From Alphaproteobacteria bacterium CG11_big_fil_rev_8_21_14_0_20_39_49 (lineage in GTDB: Bacteria > Pseudomonadota > Alphaproteobacteria > Rickettsiales > UBA6187), in NCBI GenBank assembly GCA_002787635.1, contig PCXK01000015.1, positions 68,869 to 132,868 on the forward strand: a stretch of DNA of 64,000 nt. Direction: 5' to 3'. The position numbers were made by a program, and so were the translations under genes. The notes below the pieces were generated by a model. It saw nothing but the letters and a program-made list of their open reading frames with translations, made no database searches and was not told the DNA's origin. Positions 19,277 to 64,000 of the stretch are shown piece by piece; position 1 is the stretch's first letter, and every line of letters begins with the position of its first letter.

Positions 19277-19516
19277 ATTTATCTATCTTCTAACATAAAG
19301 TAATTTAAGATGTTATTTTAAAATGATTAAAATAACATTAATTCCTTCATTTGGTATGCGATGAATATTATATCCTTGCCCGATATCGTAACATTTGATA
19401 TATAGTCTGTTATTGTCATGGGCGAATTTATTTTAGCATCTCATTATAACAATAATAGACCCTGAAACTAGTTCGGGGTGGCACTGAAGAAAGTAATTTA
19501 TATAATACAAAAACCT

Positions 19517-25050: not shown

Positions 25051-25080
25051 GATGCTGAAATAAATTCGGCATGACAAAAA
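25051..25080. repeat. Core hairpin of repeat family A (partial copy)
   Basis: gatgctgaaataaattcggcatgacaaaaa matches the central hairpin of the full copies at 34751, 37517 and 54952. Confidence 0.5.
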
Positions 25081-28083: not shown

Positions 28084-28136
28084 TAGTGTCGGTGTTAAGT
28101 GATGGTGTTTGTAGTAAATTAAGTATATAATTACAC

Positions 28137-28224
28137 ACGTCATTACCCGAATTTGCGAAGCAAATTATAGGGTAATCTCATGATATCGCCCTATAGTTTC
28201 CTACGGAAACTCGGGCGATGACGT
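28137..28224. repeat. Palindromic repeat family C, copy C1 (inside the isc operon, between iscS and iscU)
   Basis: acgtcattacccgaatttgcgaagcaaattatagggtaatctca...cgccctatag...gggcgatgacgt is near-identical in architecture to 32110-32196. Confidence 0.65.
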
Positions 28225-29176: not shown

Positions 29177-29384
29177 TATAGAAGGCTCTGCAAAAGGGGT
29201 GTTTTTGTCGGTATATGGCTTAAAAAGTTCCCTCACCCGCTTGCGGGGGAGGGTTAGGGAGGGGGCGATGACTTGCGGTAAAACAAATAGTTGTAAGTAC
29301 AAAAACCCCTCACAAAACACTATCGTGTTTTAACTCTCCCTCAAGGGGAGAGTAGTTTTTTAGGACTTTTGCAGAGGTTTCTAT
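29177..29384. repeat. Palindromic repeat family B, copy B2 (between iscA and hscB)
   Basis: Termini tatagaaggctctgcaaaag / cttttgcagaggtttctat are inverted repeats. The interior ccctcacccgcttgcgggggagggttagggaggggg...cccctcacaaaacactatcgtgttttaactctccctcaaggggagagtagtttttt is shared with B1 and B3. Confidence 0.7.
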
Positions 29385-29499
29385 GGTAAATTTGAATTTA
29401 ATTTACGCATATATGTCATTCTGAACTTGTTTCAGAATCTGACCGGAATATAAAAGAGGCTGAAACATTTGCCCGTGAAAATTCAGATAAAATGTTAAA

Positions 29500-31985: not shown

Positions 31986-32218
31986 CTTCCGTACCATAAG
32001 TTATTATCCCGTGTGACAAAAAATAAAGAATAAAAAGTAAAAAACTACTCTCCCCTTGAGGGATAGTTAAAAACACAAAGTAAGACCTCTGCATAATGCA
32101 AATAAAACTCGTCATTACCCGAATTGCCAAAGGCAATTATAGGGTAATCTCACCAGAATCGCCCTATAATTTGTTTCACAAATTCAGGCAATGACGTATT
32201 ATGCAGAGGCTTCTATAG
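31986..32218. repeat. Composite/nested repeat: a short family-B-like element carrying a family C copy (C2, 32110-32196)
   Basis: The sequence cttccgtaccat...aaaaaactactctccccttgagggatagttaaaaacacaaagt is followed by agacctctgcataatgc-[C2]-attatgcagaggcttctatag. The C copy sits exactly between the inverted B-type termini. Confidence 0.6.
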
Positions 32219-34750: not shown

Positions 34751-34884
34751 CGGAATTGTAAGTTTTACGGTTGATGTGTCACCTGTGAACTTGTTTCAGG
34801 GGCGTTGCAAAATAAAATTAGATGCTAAAATAAATACAGCATGACAACTATTTTAGCACTAAAACCAATTAATGGGACATTCCG
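34751..34884. repeat. Repeat family A, full copy A1 (about 134 bp, MITE/RPE-like)
   Basis: cggaattgtaagtttt...gtgtcacctgtgaacttgtttcagg...gatgctaaaataaatacagcatgaca...gggacattccg has two internal hairpins and inverted termini. Confidence 0.65.
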
Positions 34885-34913: not shown

Positions 34914-36236
34914 TTATGCTCTTGAATCATTTAGTATTTGTCTGGCAAAAACCTTGCCTTCTTCAACGGCGGGCTGGTCAAAAGGGTTAAGTTCAAGAAG
35001 GTGAGCGGTAATGATAGTCTCAAGCATAAAATGAACCATTATTGTAGACAGTGTCTCCTCATTCATATTGCCGAATTTTATATGTCTTAGCGGACAGTTA
35101 TTCCGAGCTAATGTTTCGGCAGTTGCTTTTTGTAGGGCGGCATTAACATCACCTATGTTTTTGCCTTTTAGATATCTTGTATCATTATTTAGATAATTAC
35201 CGCTTATTTTAAGCCCTTTCTTTTCCGTATCACAGGTTATAAGGTTGAAAAGCTTATCCTTGGGGCCGTCTAAATATAGCTGCAACTGGCTGTGTTGGTC
35301 TAATGCTCCGATTGCCTTTATGGGAGTGTTGCCTTTCCCTTGCTTGCCTAGGCTTTCCGCCCATATTTGCCTGTACCATGTAGCAACCGCCGATAAGCGG
35401 TCAACATAGGGCATAATCACTGTTGCTGCCGTACCTTTTTGCATGAAAGAATACTGCAATGCCGCTCCCTGTACGGGAATGCTATTACTTTTGAAAAACG
35501 CCTCCACCGCAGCTTTGGCAAATTTCCTTATCTTCCTTATGTCAACTCCGGCTACAACGGCAGGTATCAGCCCTACATTGGTAAATGTCGAGAATCTGCC
35601 GCCTATATTTTTTTCGTGGTCGATAACGGTAGCACCTATCTGCTTGCCGATATCACGCAAAGGATTATCTACGGGATCGGATATTATATAAATATGCTTA
35701 CCTATGTCTAAATGCTCTTTTTCCAACGCATCTAAAAAACACATGAACTGTGCAAGAGTCTCAACGGTACTGCCTGACTTACTTGTAACCAAGAATGCTG
35801 TGCCTTCAAGGTCAAGCTGGGCTATAAATGACTCTATAGTATATGGGTCGACACTATCTATGAAATAAACCCTTTTATCTATTCCGTCATGCGGCTGGGC
35901 AAGGCATACCATGCTTTGAGGATTCAGTGTAGAACCGCCCGTTCCAAGCACCACCAACTCATCGAAGCTATCGCGTATCTGACTACCTATTCGTATGATA
36001 TTCTCAATATCATCAGCCTGTTCGATATGATTAAATATCGGAGAGTTGCCTTCATCTTTTTCCCGTCTTAACTTATCAAGAATATCAGATGCTTTTACAA
36101 GGTTCTTTTCAAACTCGTCCCTGCTCAGACCGTTATTACCTATCTTGTCTTCAAAACAATTATCTATATTTTGCTCGTAAGCCATACTATCTTCATGTTT
36201 TTTTAACTTAACTACCTTGTCACTACTCACTATCAC
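34914..36236 (-). CDS. pgi: Glucose-6-phosphate isomerase (short bacterial type)
   Basis: LGTGGSTLNPQ, VTSKSGSTVETL, GGRFS and the IWAESLGK region are PGI signatures. A GTG start overlaps the upstream stop (GTGA); an alternative ATG lies at 36185. Confidence 0.85.
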   Translation of the reverse strand: MIVSSDKVVKLKKHEDSMAYEQNIDNCFEDKIGNNGLSRDEFEKNLVKASDILDKLRREKDEGNSPIFNHIEQADDIENIIRIGSQIRDSFDELVVLGTGGSTLNPQSMVCLAQPHDGIDKRVYFIDSVDPYTIESFIAQLDLEGTAFLVTSKSGSTVETLAQFMCFLDALEKEHLDIGKHIYIISDPVDNPLRDIGKQIGATVIDHEKNIGGRFSTFTNVGLIPAVVAGVDIRKIRKFAKAAVEAFFKSNSIPVQGAALQYSFMQKGTAATVIMPYVDRLSAVATWYRQIWAESLGKQGKGNTPIKAIGALDQHSQLQLYLDGPKDKLFNLITCDTEKKGLKISGNYLNNDTRYLKGKNIGDVNAALQKATAETLARNNCPLRHIKFGNMNEETLSTIMVHFMLETIITAHLLELNPFDQPAVEEGKVFARQILNDSRA

Positions 36237-37684
36237 TTACCCCCGACTACCACAAAGGTCATTTTATTTACGTCCAAAAGGCGTTTAGCTGCTTGTTTAA
36301 TCTGCTGTGTTGTTACGCCTTTAACATAATCGTTCCTTTTTTCCAGAAAATCGATTCCTAAATTTTCCGTTTGCATTACAGATAAGAACTCTGCCAGATT
36401 TTCATTCTTGGTCATTTTGAGCGGAAAGGAATTTATCAGATAATCTTTTGCGTCATCTAGTTCCTGCTCGGTCACGCCTTTTTCCTGCATCTTTTTTATC
36501 TCGGATTTAATAAGGTCTATCGACTGATTGACCTTTGTGCTGTCAGTGCCTACATAACCTGAAAAAAGACCCGCTTCACTATAGATATCAAGAAAGCTGT
36601 ATATAGTATAGGCAAGACCGTTTTTTTCACGCACAACGTCCATAAGGCGTGATTCAAAACCGCCGCCGCCTAATATGTGGTTCATGATATAAGCCGGATA
36701 AAAATCCTCATCGTTACGCTTAACCCCTTTTGCCCCGAAAAGGACGACACTTTGAGTTATGTTCTTAGGTATATCTACACGCTCACCTTTATCGTTTATG
36801 ACGACCTTGGGGAATGTCTTTATTTTCTTACGGGCTGAAGGGATTTTAAGGTATTTATCAAGAAGGTCGGCAACCTGTTGTTTCTTTACGTCCCCCACTA
36901 CACTTATAACTATATTCTCATCGGTAAAGTTATTATTTACAAATGATATAAAATCATCTCTTTTTAAGGATTTTATACTCTCGGGCGTTCCGAATTTTGA
37001 TTTGCCGTAAGGGTGATTAACGAATATAGTTTCATCGAATTTCCTTGATGCTACGTACCTTGGGTTTTCTTTTTGCTTTTCAATTATTACCAGTATCTGA
37101 TTGCGAATCCTTTCGACAACATCAGGTTTAAAATCAGGCTTTGTAAGGGGCAGGTTAACCAGCTTTAGGGATTCTTCCAGATTTTCCTTCAATGTTTTTA
37201 TCGAAATATGAAAATTATCTTTGTCGGTATTAAATGAAATTGAAGTAGCAAGTTCCTCCAGTTTTTTTCTATAATCCAGTGACGATATACCGTCGGCTCC
37301 TTCATCAAGCAACCCTGACACCATATAGGCAAGCCCTTCCTTTCCCTCAGGGTCATATGCCACACCGCTTTTGGTGAATGTTATTTTTACAGATACGATA
37401 GGTAAGTAATCATCTTCTATCACCCATGCTTTATAACCGCCCTTTGAGCTTACTTCTTCCACCTTCGACACTGAAGCTGATGCAGCATTAGCTGTAAAAG
37501 ACATTATAATAAGAATCGGAATTGTACGTTTAATGATTGATGTGTCACCGATGAACTTGTTCAGGGTATTGTGTCCATGTGTGATATGCTGAAACAAGTT
37601 CAGCATGACAAAAACAACTAATTTTAACGACTCAACCATTAAACGTACAATTCCGATAAAAATTAAAGTAAGTAATTTTTTCAT
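36233..37684 (-). CDS. M16 (pitrilysin)-family peptidase-like protein lacking the HxxEH zinc motif; the N-terminal signal peptide is interrupted by a repeat
   Basis: M16 fold signatures (EGLAYMVSGLLDEG at the usual HxxEH position, NPRYVASRKF, GGGFESRLMDVVREKNGLAYTIYS). Residues 11-56 are encoded by repeat copy A2. Confidence 0.8.
   Translation of the reverse strand: MKKLLTLIFIGIVRLMVESLKLVVFVMLNLFQHITHGHNTLNKFIGDTSIIKRTIPILIIMSFTANAASASVSKVEEVSSKGGYKAWVIEDDYLPIVSVKITFTKSGVAYDPEGKEGLAYMVSGLLDEGADGISSLDYRKKLEELATSISFNTDKDNFHISIKTLKENLEESLKLVNLPLTKPDFKPDVVERIRNQILVIIEKQKENPRYVASRKFDETIFVNHPYGKSKFGTPESIKSLKRDDFISFVNNNFTDENIVISVVGDVKKQQVADLLDKYLKIPSARKKIKTFPKVVINDKGERVDIPKNITQSVVLFGAKGVKRNDEDFYPAYIMNHILGGGGFESRLMDVVREKNGLAYTIYSFLDIYSEAGLFSGYVGTDSTKVNQSIDLIKSEIKKMQEKGVTEQELDDAKDYLINSFPLKMTKNENLAEFLSVMQTENLGIDFLEKRNDYVKGVTTQQIKQAAKRLLDVNKMTFVVVGGK
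37517..37655. repeat. Repeat family A, full copy A2, located inside the M16 coding sequence
   Basis: cggaattgtacgtttaatg...gtgtcaccgatgaacttgttcaggg...gatatgctgaaacaagttcagcatgacaaaaa...cattaaacgtacaattccg has 19-bp perfect inverted termini. Confidence 0.75.
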
Positions 37685-37892
37685 GAAACCTATATAGACA
37701 CAGCTTTTATAAGCGGTAAAGCAATTTTTATAGTGTTTTACGGTAAATTTGAATTTATTTCGACTATGGTCAAGCCATAGGTATGACGGGTAGGATACAA
37801 TTCCATATTTTATTAACTTTACCGGCTTTTTTCACTTGAAATTAAATTATTATGCAAATAACATCATTTTATAAATACAAAACGGTTTGATA

Positions 37893-38537: not shown

Positions 38538-38664
38538 GCAATAATTTATTGTAACTTTTCTATTTCTTTGCTAAAAACTATCAAAAATATGAGCCTTTAT
38601 TGTAATGCTGAGTTTATTTCAGCATTTTTTCACAATAAAAGCTTAATAAATGTAGGAGTTACCG

Positions 38665-49613: not shown

Positions 49614-49685
49614 TTTTGTCATGCTGAATTTATTTCAGCATCTTTAAAAAAACAAAAACAGATCCTGAAACAATGATGACATCAT
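49614..49685. repeat. Repeat family A, internal part only (reverse orientation, lacks the termini)
   Basis: ttttgtcatgctgaatttatttcagcatc...agatcctgaaacaatgatgacatc corresponds to both internal hairpins of family A. Confidence 0.5.
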
Positions 49686-52094: not shown

Positions 52095-52271
52095 GGTCTT
52101 CTTTTATATAGTTTTTAGCAAGACTATAGCTTCTTTAGAAGAAGAAAACCATATTTTTTTAGTATAGTGTTTCGGAGGAGTGTTCAATAACAATATATTT
52201 GTCATGCATCTTATTTCAGCATCTACTTTAGTTAACCTCGGCTATGTATAAGAGTTTTGTAAAAACAAACA

Positions 52272-52380
52272 GTCCGTCATACTCCGGCTTGACCGGAGTA
52301 TCCAAGAATATAAATAATGCACGCACTTTGTGCGTACTTTTTTTATTTCTCTTGGATTCCGGCTTTCGCCGGAATGACAG
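52272..52380. repeat. Palindromic repeat family D, copy D1
   Basis: gtccgtcatactccggcttgaccggagtatccaag...aatgcacgcactttgtgcgtac...cttggattccggctttcgccggaatgacag contains three nested hairpins. The first two-thirds recur at 63934-64000. Confidence 0.65.
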
Positions 52381-54951: not shown

Positions 54952-55086
54952 CGGAATTGTAAGTTTTGTTTTTGTCACCCTGAACTTGATTCAGGGTCTT
55001 TTAAAAGTAAAATGAGATGCTGAAATAAATTCAGCATGACAAAAACAAATAAATTTTAACGGTTTAACAGTTAAACGTACAGTTCC
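54952..55086. repeat. Repeat family A, full copy A3 (27 nt upstream of leuA)
   Basis: cggaattgtaagttttg...gtcaccctgaacttgattcagggtc...gatgctgaaataaattcagcatgacaaaaa...ttaaacgtacagttcc. Confidence 0.7.
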
Positions 55087-55112
55087 TAAAAAATTTAACG
55101 GAAAAAAACAAA

Positions 55113-56651
55113 ATGACTAAAGACAAGATAAAAATATTTGATACTACATTGCGTGACGGTGAGCAATCACCCGGTGCAACAATGAATATGGACGAGAAGA
55201 TATTAATAGCTGAAACTCTTGATAAGATGGGCGTTGATATAATTGAGGCAGGTTTTGCCATTGCGTCAAAGGGAGATTTTGAAGCGGTAAATAAAGTTGC
55301 CAAGAAGGTGAAGAACGCCACCGTTTGCTCGCTTGCAAGGACTGTGAAGGCTGACATTGAAGCTGCGGCAGAGGCTATAAAGCCTGCAAAAAGAGGGCGT
55401 ATCCACACATTCATTTCAACCAGCCCTATTCATATGAAGCACAAGTTGAATATGAACGAGGAGCAGGTTTTGGAACGCACCCGTGATATGGTAAAATTAG
55501 CCCGTAATTTATGTGATGATGTTGAGTGGTCGGCGGAGGACGCTACCCGTACAGACCATGATTTTTTATGCAAAACTGTTGAAGCTGCTATTGCCGCAGG
55601 TGCTACCACTATCAATTTGCCTGATACGGTAGGGTACACCACCCCTTTAGAATATGCAGGTTTGATAGCTATGATAAAAAACCGTGTACCCAATGTTGAC
55701 AAGGCCGTTTTATCGGTACACTGCCATAACGATCTCGGCTTGGCGGTTGCTAATTCATTGGCGGCGGTTAGTGCCGGTGCAAGGCAGATAGAATGCACTA
55801 TCAACGGGCTTGGTGAAAGAGCGGGAAATGCTGCCATGGAAGAAATAGTAATGGCAATCAAAACCCGTAATGACATCATGCCTTATGACACAAATATTGA
55901 CACCACCCAGATTATGCGTGCATCAAAATTAGTATCTACCGTTACAGGCTTTGTAGTGCAGAACAACAAGGCAATAGTAGGTGCAAACGCCTTTGCACAT
56001 GAATCGGGCGTACATCAGGACGGCATGTTGAAAAACGCCTCCACCTACGAGATAATGACACCTGAATCTGTCGGCTTGCACAAATCAAAATTGGTTATGG
56101 GTAAATTATCAGGTCGTCATGCCTTTAAAAATAAACTGGAAGAATTGGGTTTTGAGTTGGGAGATAACGCTTTTGAGGAGGCATTTAACAACTTCAAAAA
56201 CTTAGCTGACAAAAAGAAAGAGATTTATGATGAAGATATTATTGCACTTATTGATAATAGTGCTATTAACAATAAAGGGTTGGTCGAACTTTTAAGTTTG
56301 CAGGTTCATTGCGGTTCTGTTGATGACCCGAAAGCTGTTATAAAACTTGCAGTTGAGGGCAAGACCAAAGAAATAGAAGCAACGGGTGACGGTCCTGTTG
56401 ATGCTATTTTTAATGGAATAAAAAAATTAGTTACGCATGACGCAAAACTGGAATTATATCAGGTTCATGCGGTAACAGGTGGAACCGATGCACAGGCTGA
56501 GGTTACGGTAAGGCTGAATAAGGATGGAAAAATAATTAGCGGTAATTACCGTGATACGGATACTTTGGTTGCATCGGCAGGAGCTTATATTGCTGCTGTA
56601 AATAAACTAAAGAAGCTTGACGAGAATGCAAATAAAGAGCATGTTGTTTAA
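55113..56651 (+). CDS. leuA: 2-isopropylmalate synthase
   Basis: IFDTTLRDGEQSPG, HCHNDLGLAVANSLAAV, GLGERAGNAAMEE, and a C-terminal LeuA dimerisation/regulatory domain. Confidence 0.95.
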   Translation: MTKDKIKIFDTTLRDGEQSPGATMNMDEKILIAETLDKMGVDIIEAGFAIASKGDFEAVNKVAKKVKNATVCSLARTVKADIEAAAEAIKPAKRGRIHTFISTSPIHMKHKLNMNEEQVLERTRDMVKLARNLCDDVEWSAEDATRTDHDFLCKTVEAAIAAGATTINLPDTVGYTTPLEYAGLIAMIKNRVPNVDKAVLSVHCHNDLGLAVANSLAAVSAGARQIECTINGLGERAGNAAMEEIVMAIKTRNDIMPYDTNIDTTQIMRASKLVSTVTGFVVQNNKAIVGANAFAHESGVHQDGMLKNASTYEIMTPESVGLHKSKLVMGKLSGRHAFKNKLEELGFELGDNAFEEAFNNFKNLADKKKEIYDEDIIALIDNSAINNKGLVELLSLQVHCGSVDDPKAVIKLAVEGKTKEIEATGDGPVDAIFNGIKKLVTHDAKLELYQVHAVTGGTDAQAEVTVRLNKDGKIISGNYRDTDTLVASAGAYIAAVNKLKKLDENANKEHVV

Positions 56652-63616: not shown

Positions 63617-63816
63617 CAAGCTACGGGAAGGGGGGCTTTACCTCTTTCCGCTAATTAGTCCCTTCACTCGCTTGCGAGGGAGGGTTAGGGAGGTGGCTAT
63701 AACTTGAGGCAAAACAAATACTTGTAAGTAAAGAACCCCTCACAAAACACTATCGTGTTTTAACTCTCCCTCAAGGGGAGAGTAGTTTTTTAGGAATTTT
63801 GCAGAAGATTTTGTAG
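63617..63816. repeat. Palindromic repeat family B, copy B3 (starts directly after the degP stop)
   Basis: cccttcactcgcttgcgagggagggttagggaggtgg...cccctcacaaaacactatcgtgttttaactctccctcaaggggagagtagttttttaggaattttgcagaag is near-identical to B2 over the right about 110 bp. Confidence 0.65.
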
Positions 63817-63933
63817 CATTTCCTAGTGAAAAGAAAATTATAAGGGGATCTTATATAACCCTAACTATGGATAAGAACTGCCGTAACCGATTGAAAAAGA
63901 AGTAATACACGACAAGCTCGTTTACGTATAAAA

Positions 63934-64000
63934 AGTCCGTCATACTATGGCTTGACCATAGTATCCAAGCTTAAAAATAATGCACACACTTTGTGTGTAC
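63934..64000. repeat. Palindromic repeat family D, copy D2 (truncated by the window end)
   Basis: gtccgtcatactatggcttgaccatagtatccaagcttaaaaataatgcacacactttgtgtgtac parallels 52272-52338, with compensatory changes in both hairpin stems. Confidence 0.6.

Follow-up and report, generated by a model that had tools for sequence, protein, structure and literature searches.

A miniature inverted-repeat transposable element, or MITE, sits in frame within the export signal of an M16-like (pitrilysin family) gene in a 64,000-nucleotide stretch of contig PCXK01000015.1 (hereafter the window), which comes from a groundwater metagenome-assembled genome (MAG) carried under the source name 'Alphaproteobacteria bacterium CG11_big_fil_rev_8_21_14_0_20_39_49' in the NCBI MAG entry PIR38719.1. 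This 139-nt copy, which we denote A2, almost certainly landed 29 nt inside the gene, splitting the hydrophobic core of a Sec signal peptide midway, once its lineage and a sister lineage had diverged, and a second copy of the same length was found in the signal peptide of a lipoprotein gene on a related contig. The host genome has a GC content of 39% and includes both pgi and ppk. The M16-like gene lies on the minus strand of the window, and its open reading frame (ORF) and the family copies A1-A3 are within the 64 kb (Table 1).

Empty site and target-site duplication in the M16-like gene

The closest non-identical homolog of the M16-like protein (P0002; 93% identical, 434 aa, starting MKKLLTLIFIIISFATNFALAAIPKVEEV) is encoded in the sister MAG GCA_027621865.1, labelled 'Rickettsiales bacterium', at a locus (L001) that is syntenic with the window, having ychF, a hypothetical gene, the M16 gene and pgi in the same arrangement. 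The site is uninterrupted there (...TTAATTTTTAT|TATAATA..., in a fuller read ATGAAAAAATTACTTACTTTAATTTTTAT|TATAATATCT), and the window differs from it by exactly 147 nt of extra DNA, that is, the 139-nt element plus an 8-nt target-site duplication (TSD), which together add 49 codons (G11-I59). On the gene strand the window reads ATG AAA AAA TTA CTT ACT TTA ATT TTT AT before the element begins with C GGA ATT GTA CGT TTA ATG, and the element ends with ATT AAA CGT ACA ATT CCG, after which the gene continues with ATT CTT ATT ATA ATG TCT. With the 147 nt removed, the signal peptide reads MKKLLTLIFI-IMSFTANAASA (MKKLLTLIFIIMSFTANAASA), equal in length to that of the ortholog (MKKLLTLIFIIISFATNFALA). 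Ordinary signal peptides were also found in all remaining homologs with a locatable conserved W-x-x-E-D motif, with 34-58 residues ahead of the motif compared with 86 in the window (the exceptions being one truncated entry and one with a mis-called start). The insertion is recent, since an intergenic copy on a related contig (L007) differs from A2 at just 3 of 139 nt.

The first-pass annotation of the window, made from the sequence alone, had described a 46-residue repeat-encoded insert with perfect 19-bp inverted termini, lying wholly inside ORF 36233-37684 and leaving the reading frame open. The termini, the position and the open frame were all confirmed (the 19-nt inverted repeats have 0 mismatches, against a chance expectation of 0.03 per window), and the element does encode the 46 residues G11-P56; measured against the empty site, however, the insertion, TSD included, amounts to 49 residues. 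The signal peptide that had been recovered by excision is of Sec type with an AXA site by the hand rules used here (a basic n-region, an h-region of 7-15 uncharged residues and small residues at -3/-1) but is three residues too long. The same annotation had named as the test of an insertion whether orthologs lack the segment, and it is indeed absent both from the 93%-identical syntenic P0002 and from the motif-located homologs.

That the segment might instead be ancestral coding sequence, or an artefact of assembly, is an explanation to which we give next to no credence, as it can draw on the open frame only. The sister site is empty and holds the target 8-mer once, no other homolog carries the extra residues, and near-identical intergenic copies exist with TSDs of their own; the empty site and the TSDs thus refute it. 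Besides the NCBI entry, 8 or more contigs of JGI and ENA assemblies carry the same insertion allele, and junctions that are identical across JGI, ENA and NCBI assemblies mean that the allele is not an assembly artefact.

The gene has a ratio of nonsynonymous to synonymous substitution rates (dN/dS) against its L001 counterpart of 0.117 overall and 0.086 in the mature part, compared with 0.086 for pgi. Its product matches Peptidase_M16 (PF00675, 40.3 bits; cut-off 22.3) and Peptidase_M16_C (PF05193, 139.5 bits). The HxxEH zinc motif is absent from the protein, the corresponding stretch reading GLAYMVSGLLDEG, and among 120 homologs only one has HxxEH in its first 200 residues; because the motif is lacking, the protein is probably a non-catalytic, subunit-type member whose catalytic partner is not adjacent. 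An AlphaFold2 (AF2) model with a predicted local distance difference test score (pLDDT) of 90.6 has a helix at residues 2-35, disorder at 36-50, a helix at 51-65 and the M16 fold from residue 75, so that the insert lies wholly outside the folded domain. Codons M61-A70 (37475-37504), just 3' of the insertion, form the most diverged 30-nt stretch, with 13 of 30 positions changed compared with 7.4% gene-wide (p = 2e-7 when set against the background of the gene, but only p = 0.03 when set against the synonymous rate). Here S-VS stands in place of the A-IP motif that orthologs conserve, and Ala/Ser have taken over from hydrophobic residues, changes that could reflect compensation (more AXA sites) or relaxed constraint. 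The spacer upstream of the gene (37685-37886, compared with L001 9757-10000) is conserved for just ~50 nt before the start codon; farther upstream the window and the sister genome hold different hairpin repeats, showing rapid repeat turnover.

A family of small non-autonomous elements

Copies A1, A2 and A3, which the first-pass annotation had listed as full copies, do align as one family (81% mean column identity; E = 1e-32 to 1e-43 with a family hidden Markov model, HMM). A metagenome scan for the family, which did not return the window's own contig, yielded four true extra copies on related metagenome contigs (L004, L006, L007 and L009, of which L006 is truncated) and three chance matches (L003, L005 and L008). 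Full-length copies number three in the window and four in related contigs, with the one truncated copy in addition; they range from 134 to 141 nt and have terminal inverted repeats (TIRs) of 19-24 nt, the arms differing at 0-1 positions in L004, L007 and L009. All seven full copies are flanked by 8-bp TSDs in which 51 of 56 positions match (8/8 in three copies, 7/8 in three and 6/8 in one), whereas displaced control 8-mers from the flanks match at a mean of ~2.2 of 8 positions and a maximum of 5, and the 8-mer is present once at both empty sites, that of the M16-like gene and that of the lipoprotein gene. The insertion targets are all AT-rich, and 4/7 full copies lie within ~30 nt of a start codon. 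Every copy examined, truncated and core-only ones included, is intergenic except A2 and the lipoprotein copy; in-frame insertion of a palindrome into a gene, as had been claimed from the sequence, therefore holds for A2 and not as a habit of the family.

The element contains no transposase gene, the longest open frame being the 46 codons of A2, with 1-5 stops in the other frames. Small size, 19-24-nt TIRs, an 8-bp TSD, dispersed copies and the lack of coding capacity beyond an accidental frame identify it as a non-autonomous cut-and-paste transposon, i.e., a MITE. For further members of the family and a partner insertion sequence (IS) with the same TIRs, exact-pattern scans of 185,579 reference genomes (one per species) gave 0 matches, both with the TIR plus internal motif and with the 24-nt TIR consensus, as did a scan of viral contigs, and no solitary TIR occurred in any sequence gathered here. 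Rfam at its gathering threshold gave 0 matches over the whole window, which also holds no tRNAs, and searches of Pfam and NCBIfam with the element-encoded peptide in both orientations returned only noise at E <= 10. These results agree with the earlier statement that the family differs in sequence from RPE-1, one of the Rickettsia palindromic elements (RPEs).

Folding of the 139 nt of A2 gives a hairpin at -52 kcal/mol (z = -7.6 relative to shuffled sequences) with a perfect stem of 24-26 bp, which in the mRNA context is 26 bp long and leaves the start-codon region outside. Two hairpins make up the interior (CCCTGAA..TTCAGGG and ATGCTGAAA..TTCAGCAT), and the family looks modular, as this two-hairpin core occurs without TIRs and the second hairpin stands by itself at four further places; alternatively, the core-only relatives may be decayed or ancestral forms. 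In addition to the TIR-less cores in Table 1, another is found at L009 3271-3382. The inner hairpin GATGCTGAAATAAATTCAGCATGACAA stands alone in intergenic spacers at 25051-25077, 29413-29439(-), 38600-38626(-) and 49616-49642(-), and in the sister locus at L001 9089-9115, while blastn against plasmids gave as sole match an identical 26-nt stretch of it in Treponema saccharophilum. The MITE seems to have taken up this hairpin from a distinct small palindromic repeat with a wider distribution.

Just one of the six frames of A2 is free of stops, and it is the one in which the gene reads it. The gene stays open with 49 extra residues because the element and its TSD add up to a multiple of three (139 + 8 = 147 = 3 x 49) and because the copy sits in its sole stop-free orientation and phase. 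Repair of the frame after insertion was considered and ruled out by L007, an intergenic copy that is open in the same frame, which means that A2 was stop-free when it inserted and needed no later repair. In the variants of 134, 136, 140 and 141 nt, either no frame is free of stops or the length with 8 added is not divisible by 3. The 139-nt variants thus have coding capacity by accident, and the family does not conserve it.

A second insertion in a lipoprotein signal peptide

Searched exhaustively by phmmer against 1.84 billion representative proteins, the 46-aa peptide gave one real match, the 214-aa protein P0125 (a word-index protein search returned no match, though P0001 contains the peptide). 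The other matches were spurious, P0124 being an unrelated repeat protein and P0126 and P0127 ORFs across hairpin arrays; these last two (~104-108 aa, with FVMLNLFQHL...ETLKQVQGD twice) are translations across tandem hairpins of the same kind and likely spurious gene calls. P0125 is laid out as MVKMKRLILS-IRILRLMVESLKLVVFVMLNLFQHLTRGHKTPKQVQGDTSTIKRTIPLS-IALIILASAC-APKP..., the element splitting MKRLILS|IALIILASAC, so that this insertion too consists of 139 + 8 nt, in frame and inside a signal peptide. Uninterrupted lipoprotein-precursor orthologs are P0128 (88%; sister MAG, L012; start MKRLILSIALTILASSC) and P0129 (69%).

The element on this contig (L010) is 93% identical to A2, with offsetting 1-nt indels that alter the middle of the peptide; since it is a different variant, the two insertions are independent. 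It carries ~5 private substitutions, four of them in the TIRs, whose arms now differ at 4/20 positions, and the copy is probably immobilised while its frame stays intact. The lipoprotein gene has a dN/dS of 0.27. No ATG, GTG or TTG lies between the element and the lipobox Cys, so that a lipoprotein can be made only if translation from the upstream ATG reads through the element. In the sister MAG, a terminase large-subunit-like gene (Terminase_6C; L012 655-2067) lies ~1 kb from the lipoprotein gene and may be a prophage or gene-transfer-agent remnant.

Predicted consequences for export

Both products start with the native n-region and half of the native h-region (MKK-LLTLIFI in the M16-like protein, MKR-LILS in the lipoprotein), followed by element-encoded (G/R)I(V/L)RLMV-ESLK-LVVFVMLNLF and a polar loop with a net positive charge (residues 32-53 of the M16-like product, with K43, K52 and R53 against D47, plus three His; in the lipoprotein R, K, K, K and R against one D). 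After the loop, both continue with TIP, the TSD-encoded hydrophobics (ILI; LS-I), the rest of the native h-region, the c-region and the cleavage site, which is kept as ASA|S (ALA|A in the ortholog) in the M16-like protein and as an ASA|C lipobox in the lipoprotein. By the hand rules, the orthologs and the excised protein have Sec signals of the signal peptidase I (SPase I) type (MKK / LLTLIFIIMSFTA / NAASA|S), and the insertion-bearing M16-like protein has an N-terminal n+h unit (MKK + LLTLIFIGIV) as well as an internal n-h-c unit (KR + TIPILIIMSFTA + NAASA). Its uncharged stretches span residues 4-13, 22-28 and 54-65, and AXA sites fall at 67|68 and 70|71.

This layout suggests how the insertions might have arisen and persisted. 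The Ile, Phe and Leu codons of signal-peptide cores (ATT, TTT, ATA, TTA) would make these cores AT-rich, like the intergenic targets, and so favour insertion there, and the element peptide, with its hydrophobic IVRLMV and LVVFVMLNLF and then a positive loop ending in IKRTIP, would suit membrane targeting, which would let such insertions survive. The TIR-encoded K-R and the TSD-duplicated hydrophobics would rebuild an n-h-c signal right before the native cleavage site. Under the positive-inside rule the basic loop would stay cytoplasmic, and the presequence of ~70 residues, arranged as N1-H1-N2-H2-C, would direct Sec export and be cleaved off at the original position, with the mature protein as it was before the insertion. 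We lean cautiously towards this reading, in which export is retained via a bipartite presequence. A soluble domain should tolerate a hydrophobic segment of 49 residues far less well, and tolerance of the rebuilt signal would explain why coding insertions were found only in signal peptides. The broader idea that the 139-nt variants act as signal-peptide-compatible coding cassettes, with signal-peptide cores as a privileged safe harbour within coding DNA and a route to extended signal peptides or N-terminal anchors, is more tentative and, on balance, doubtful.

Several points weigh against retained export. R14, E18 and K21 interrupt the first hydrophobic block, and its crude 19-residue Hessa sum is +3.6 kcal/mol compared with -1.2 for the ortholog's signal peptide (on an unweighted scale); the first block may not insert as a clean helical hairpin, and if residues 4-31 spanned the membrane once, the third segment would be inverted and the mature domain cytoplasmic. 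Both insertions are young (A2 carries 2 private substitutions and its TSD 1 more, and the L010 copy has the ~5 given above), and since they are much younger than the divergence of the genes, dN/dS, though it marks both genes as constrained, mostly predates them and is uninformative on function after insertion. The coding insertions number two, and P0125 was found through a translated open frame, so that its being in frame is not independent evidence; the search was unbiased toward signal peptides, and it is the location of P0125 in one that constitutes the independent evidence. The strongly diverged c-region could just as well reflect a dead signal peptide under relaxed constraint, the perfect 24-26-bp RNA stem within the mRNA could lower expression, and retained export is a prediction by hand rules.

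Some of these points would fit a harmful or neutral outcome, in which the split signal no longer directs correct export and both genes are very recent loss-of-function alleles, too young to have decayed, whose open frame is a one-in-six accident. We regard this as less likely than retained export but as a serious rival; it accords with the recency of the insertions (3/139 nt between A2 and L007, one TSD change), an open frame that the family does not conserve, the charges in the first block and an insertion energy worse than the ortholog's, the loss of the A-IP motif in the most diverged part of the gene, and the absence of HxxEH, given which loss of a non-catalytic partner might be tolerated. 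If unselected, however, it would be a remarkable coincidence that both coding insertions fall within a signal-peptide core of ~12 codons. Both genes are otherwise free of stops and frameshifts, the 8 or more contigs of several assemblies all carry the same M16 insertion allele, the native n-region and a 10-residue uncharged stretch are kept at the N terminus, and the n-h-c unit is intact ahead of the native cleavage site in both genes.

A different outcome, and in our view an improbable one, would be that translation, and perhaps transcription, starts within or after the element, at Met16 or M61, making the element a 5' leader or promoter and the product differently targeted or cytoplasmic. 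IMG/Prodigal does place the start at Met16, inside the element (468 aa), where the N terminus MVESLK-LVVFVMLNLF is signal-like, and a sigma-70-like GTGACA-16-TACAAT motif (10/12) at 37548-37521 faces outward ~17 nt before the ATG of M61, but promoter-like matches are frequent in this AT-rich region (7 found vs 2.4 expected) and no Shine-Dalgarno-like purine run precedes either Met16 or M61. The first-pass annotation had recognised that a start downstream of the element would turn the insertion into one of the 5' untranslated region. M61 is the sole in-frame ATG downstream of the element and ahead of the mature domain, and a product starting there (MSFTANAASA) would have no n- or h-region; by contrast, the upstream ATG and the first 29 nt are identical to the start of the ortholog, NCBI annotates M1 (483 aa, PIR38719.1), and the lipoprotein copy offers no start codon between element and lipobox. 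A non-canonical internal start (ATC/ATT before IKRT), which would give a textbook signal peptide, was also considered and rejected: the lipoprotein copy has ACC ATA there.

Further features of the window

The coordinates of the insertion, of the family and of other repeats are collected in Table 1. A second outward-facing sigma-70-like motif lies in the other TIR of A2 (37624-37651 (+), TTAACG-16-TACAAT, 9/12); outward promoter-like motifs and a long mRNA hairpin are known from Correia elements. At least four further hairpin-repeat families occur in the window, 83-95% identical between copies and all intergenic, and the window is densely seeded with RPE-like palindromes.

Table 1 Features of the window and of the related lipoprotein locus.
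Feature	Position	Strand	Remarks
M16-like (pitrilysin family) gene	36233..37684	(-)	483 aa; otherwise intact; purifying selection
Native start, n-region MKK and first half of h-region LLTLIFI	37655..37684	(-)	First 29 nt identical to L001; 30th base (37655) is the element's first base
TSD, native copy ATTTTTAT (gene strand)	37656..37663	(-)	Codons I8-F9-I10; once in L001
MITE copy A2	37517..37655	(-)	139 nt; its only open frame supplies G11-P56 of the M16-like protein
5' TIR of A2 (gene orientation) CGGAATTGTACGTTTAATG	37637..37655	(-)	Encodes (I)GIVRLM; 0 mismatches
3' TIR of A2 (gene orientation) CATTAAACGTACAATTCCG	37517..37535	(-)	Encodes IKRTIP; gives new basic n-region (K52, R53)
Sigma-70-like motif facing outward, 3' TIR	37521..37548	(-)	GTGACA-16-TACAAT, 10/12; a lead only
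TSD, second copy ATTCTTAT	37509..37516	(-)	7/8 match; encodes I57-L58-I59, re-creates part of hydrophobic core
Native second half of signal peptide, I60-A70, IMSFTANAASA	37475..37507	(-)	AXA-type ASA|S aligns with ALA|A of the ortholog
Copy A1	34751..34884	(+)	134 nt, degraded, intergenic, 30 nt past pgi stop; TSD 6/8
Copy A3	54952..55087	(+)	136 nt, intergenic, ~25-27 nt upstream of start codon at 55113; perfect 8-bp TSD AAAAAATT
Core-only relative (two internal hairpins, no TIRs)	19405..19484	(-)	Family HMM
Further TIR-less two-hairpin copies	29412-29482 and 49614-49681		Family HMM
Lipoprotein-gene copy	L010 507-645		Same orientation and phase as A2; 139 nt, perfect 8-bp TSD TTAAGTAT
Further hairpin repeats	29221-29380 and 63652-63810; 52267-52337 and 63930-64000; 689-738 and 32032-32081; 28129-28180 and 32101-32152; 37770-37800		

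Implications and comparison with known systems

In-frame 'selfish DNA' is best known from the RPEs of Rickettsia, which lie within conserved protein bodies and are predicted to be compatible with their folds. The two insertions described here are natural experiments with documented empty sites, in which a transposon-encoded hydrophobic segment of 49 residues has entered the core of an export signal, one of the SPase I and one of the lipoprotein type. If export is retained, signal peptides would tolerate far larger interruptions than is usually assumed, and the TSD would itself repair what it disrupts, offering a mechanism for the birth of long bipartite signals; if export is lost, the two cases would represent the earliest stage of gene inactivation in a reduced genome. 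They also carry a warning for annotation, as gene callers differ on the start (468 vs 483 aa) and such proteins are likely to mislead signal-peptide predictors.

Among known systems, RPE-1 and the related Rickettsia families (Ogata et al. 2000, as summarised in PMC10969869 and PMC2229807) are the obvious comparison, and an RPE-bearing Rickettsia guanylate kinase has been reported to be translated and active (PMC2229807). Like RPEs, the element is palindromic, falls in the range of ~105-150 bp, forms a long stem-loop and occurs between genes as well as in frame in conserved genes, and its host is labelled Rickettsiales. It differs in that its encoded peptide has no NCBIfam or Pfam match and its DNA no Rfam match (where NCBIfam is assumed to hold the TIGRFAM RPE-domain models and RPE consensus DNA was not compared), in its clear 8-bp TSDs and sharp TIRs, and in its host, a groundwater MAG outside the genus Rickettsia. 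Moreover, its peptide is hydrophobic, and coding insertions make up 2 of ~8 full copies here, both in cleavable signal peptides instead of the folded protein body, compared with nearly half of the RPEs in R. conorii (PMC10969869). The element thus behaves like an RPE yet is not one by sequence or by host. A literature search on RPEs combined with signal peptides, or on the MAG and metagenome accessions, returned nothing.

In-frame reading of MITEs has been documented for RPEs, ERIC/YPAL, BOX and others (PMC10969869, PMC3184786, PMC2229807). With the classical bacterial MITEs (ERIC/YPAL-RU-2 of Yersinia, BOX and Correia; PMC2229807, PMC3184786) the element shares small size, TIRs, TSDs, multiple copies, the lack of a transposase and occasional in-frame fusions, whereas its TSD is 8 bp compared with TA in Correia and many others; it shows every MITE feature examined here save a partner IS, none of which was found. 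The nearest precedent for its location is Yersinia YPO1552, for which a hydrophobic YPAL peptide has been proposed as part of a predicted signal peptide (Delihas reviews PMC2229807, PMC3184786). There, however, the MITE helps to create a putative new exported ORF, whereas here it splits existing conserved signal peptides, twice and with known empty sites; a limited literature search turned up no MITE reported to split a conserved signal peptide that was already in place.

As a purely functional analogy, the predicted presequence resembles the long N1-H1-N2-H2-C Sec signals of autotransporter and two-partner-secretion proteins, which are functional in autotransporters (PMC2805444), in its length of more than 50 residues and in its order of a charged and hydrophobic extension, another charged region, another hydrophobic core and an ordinary cleavage site. 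The two are not homologous, the extension here being transposon-derived, ~49 residues long and more hydrophobic than the one conserved in autotransporters, and the likeness in function is a prediction. The unusual twist that sets this element apart would be its recurrence in signal peptides, with TSD- and TIR-encoded residues that appear to rebuild the very signal it interrupts.

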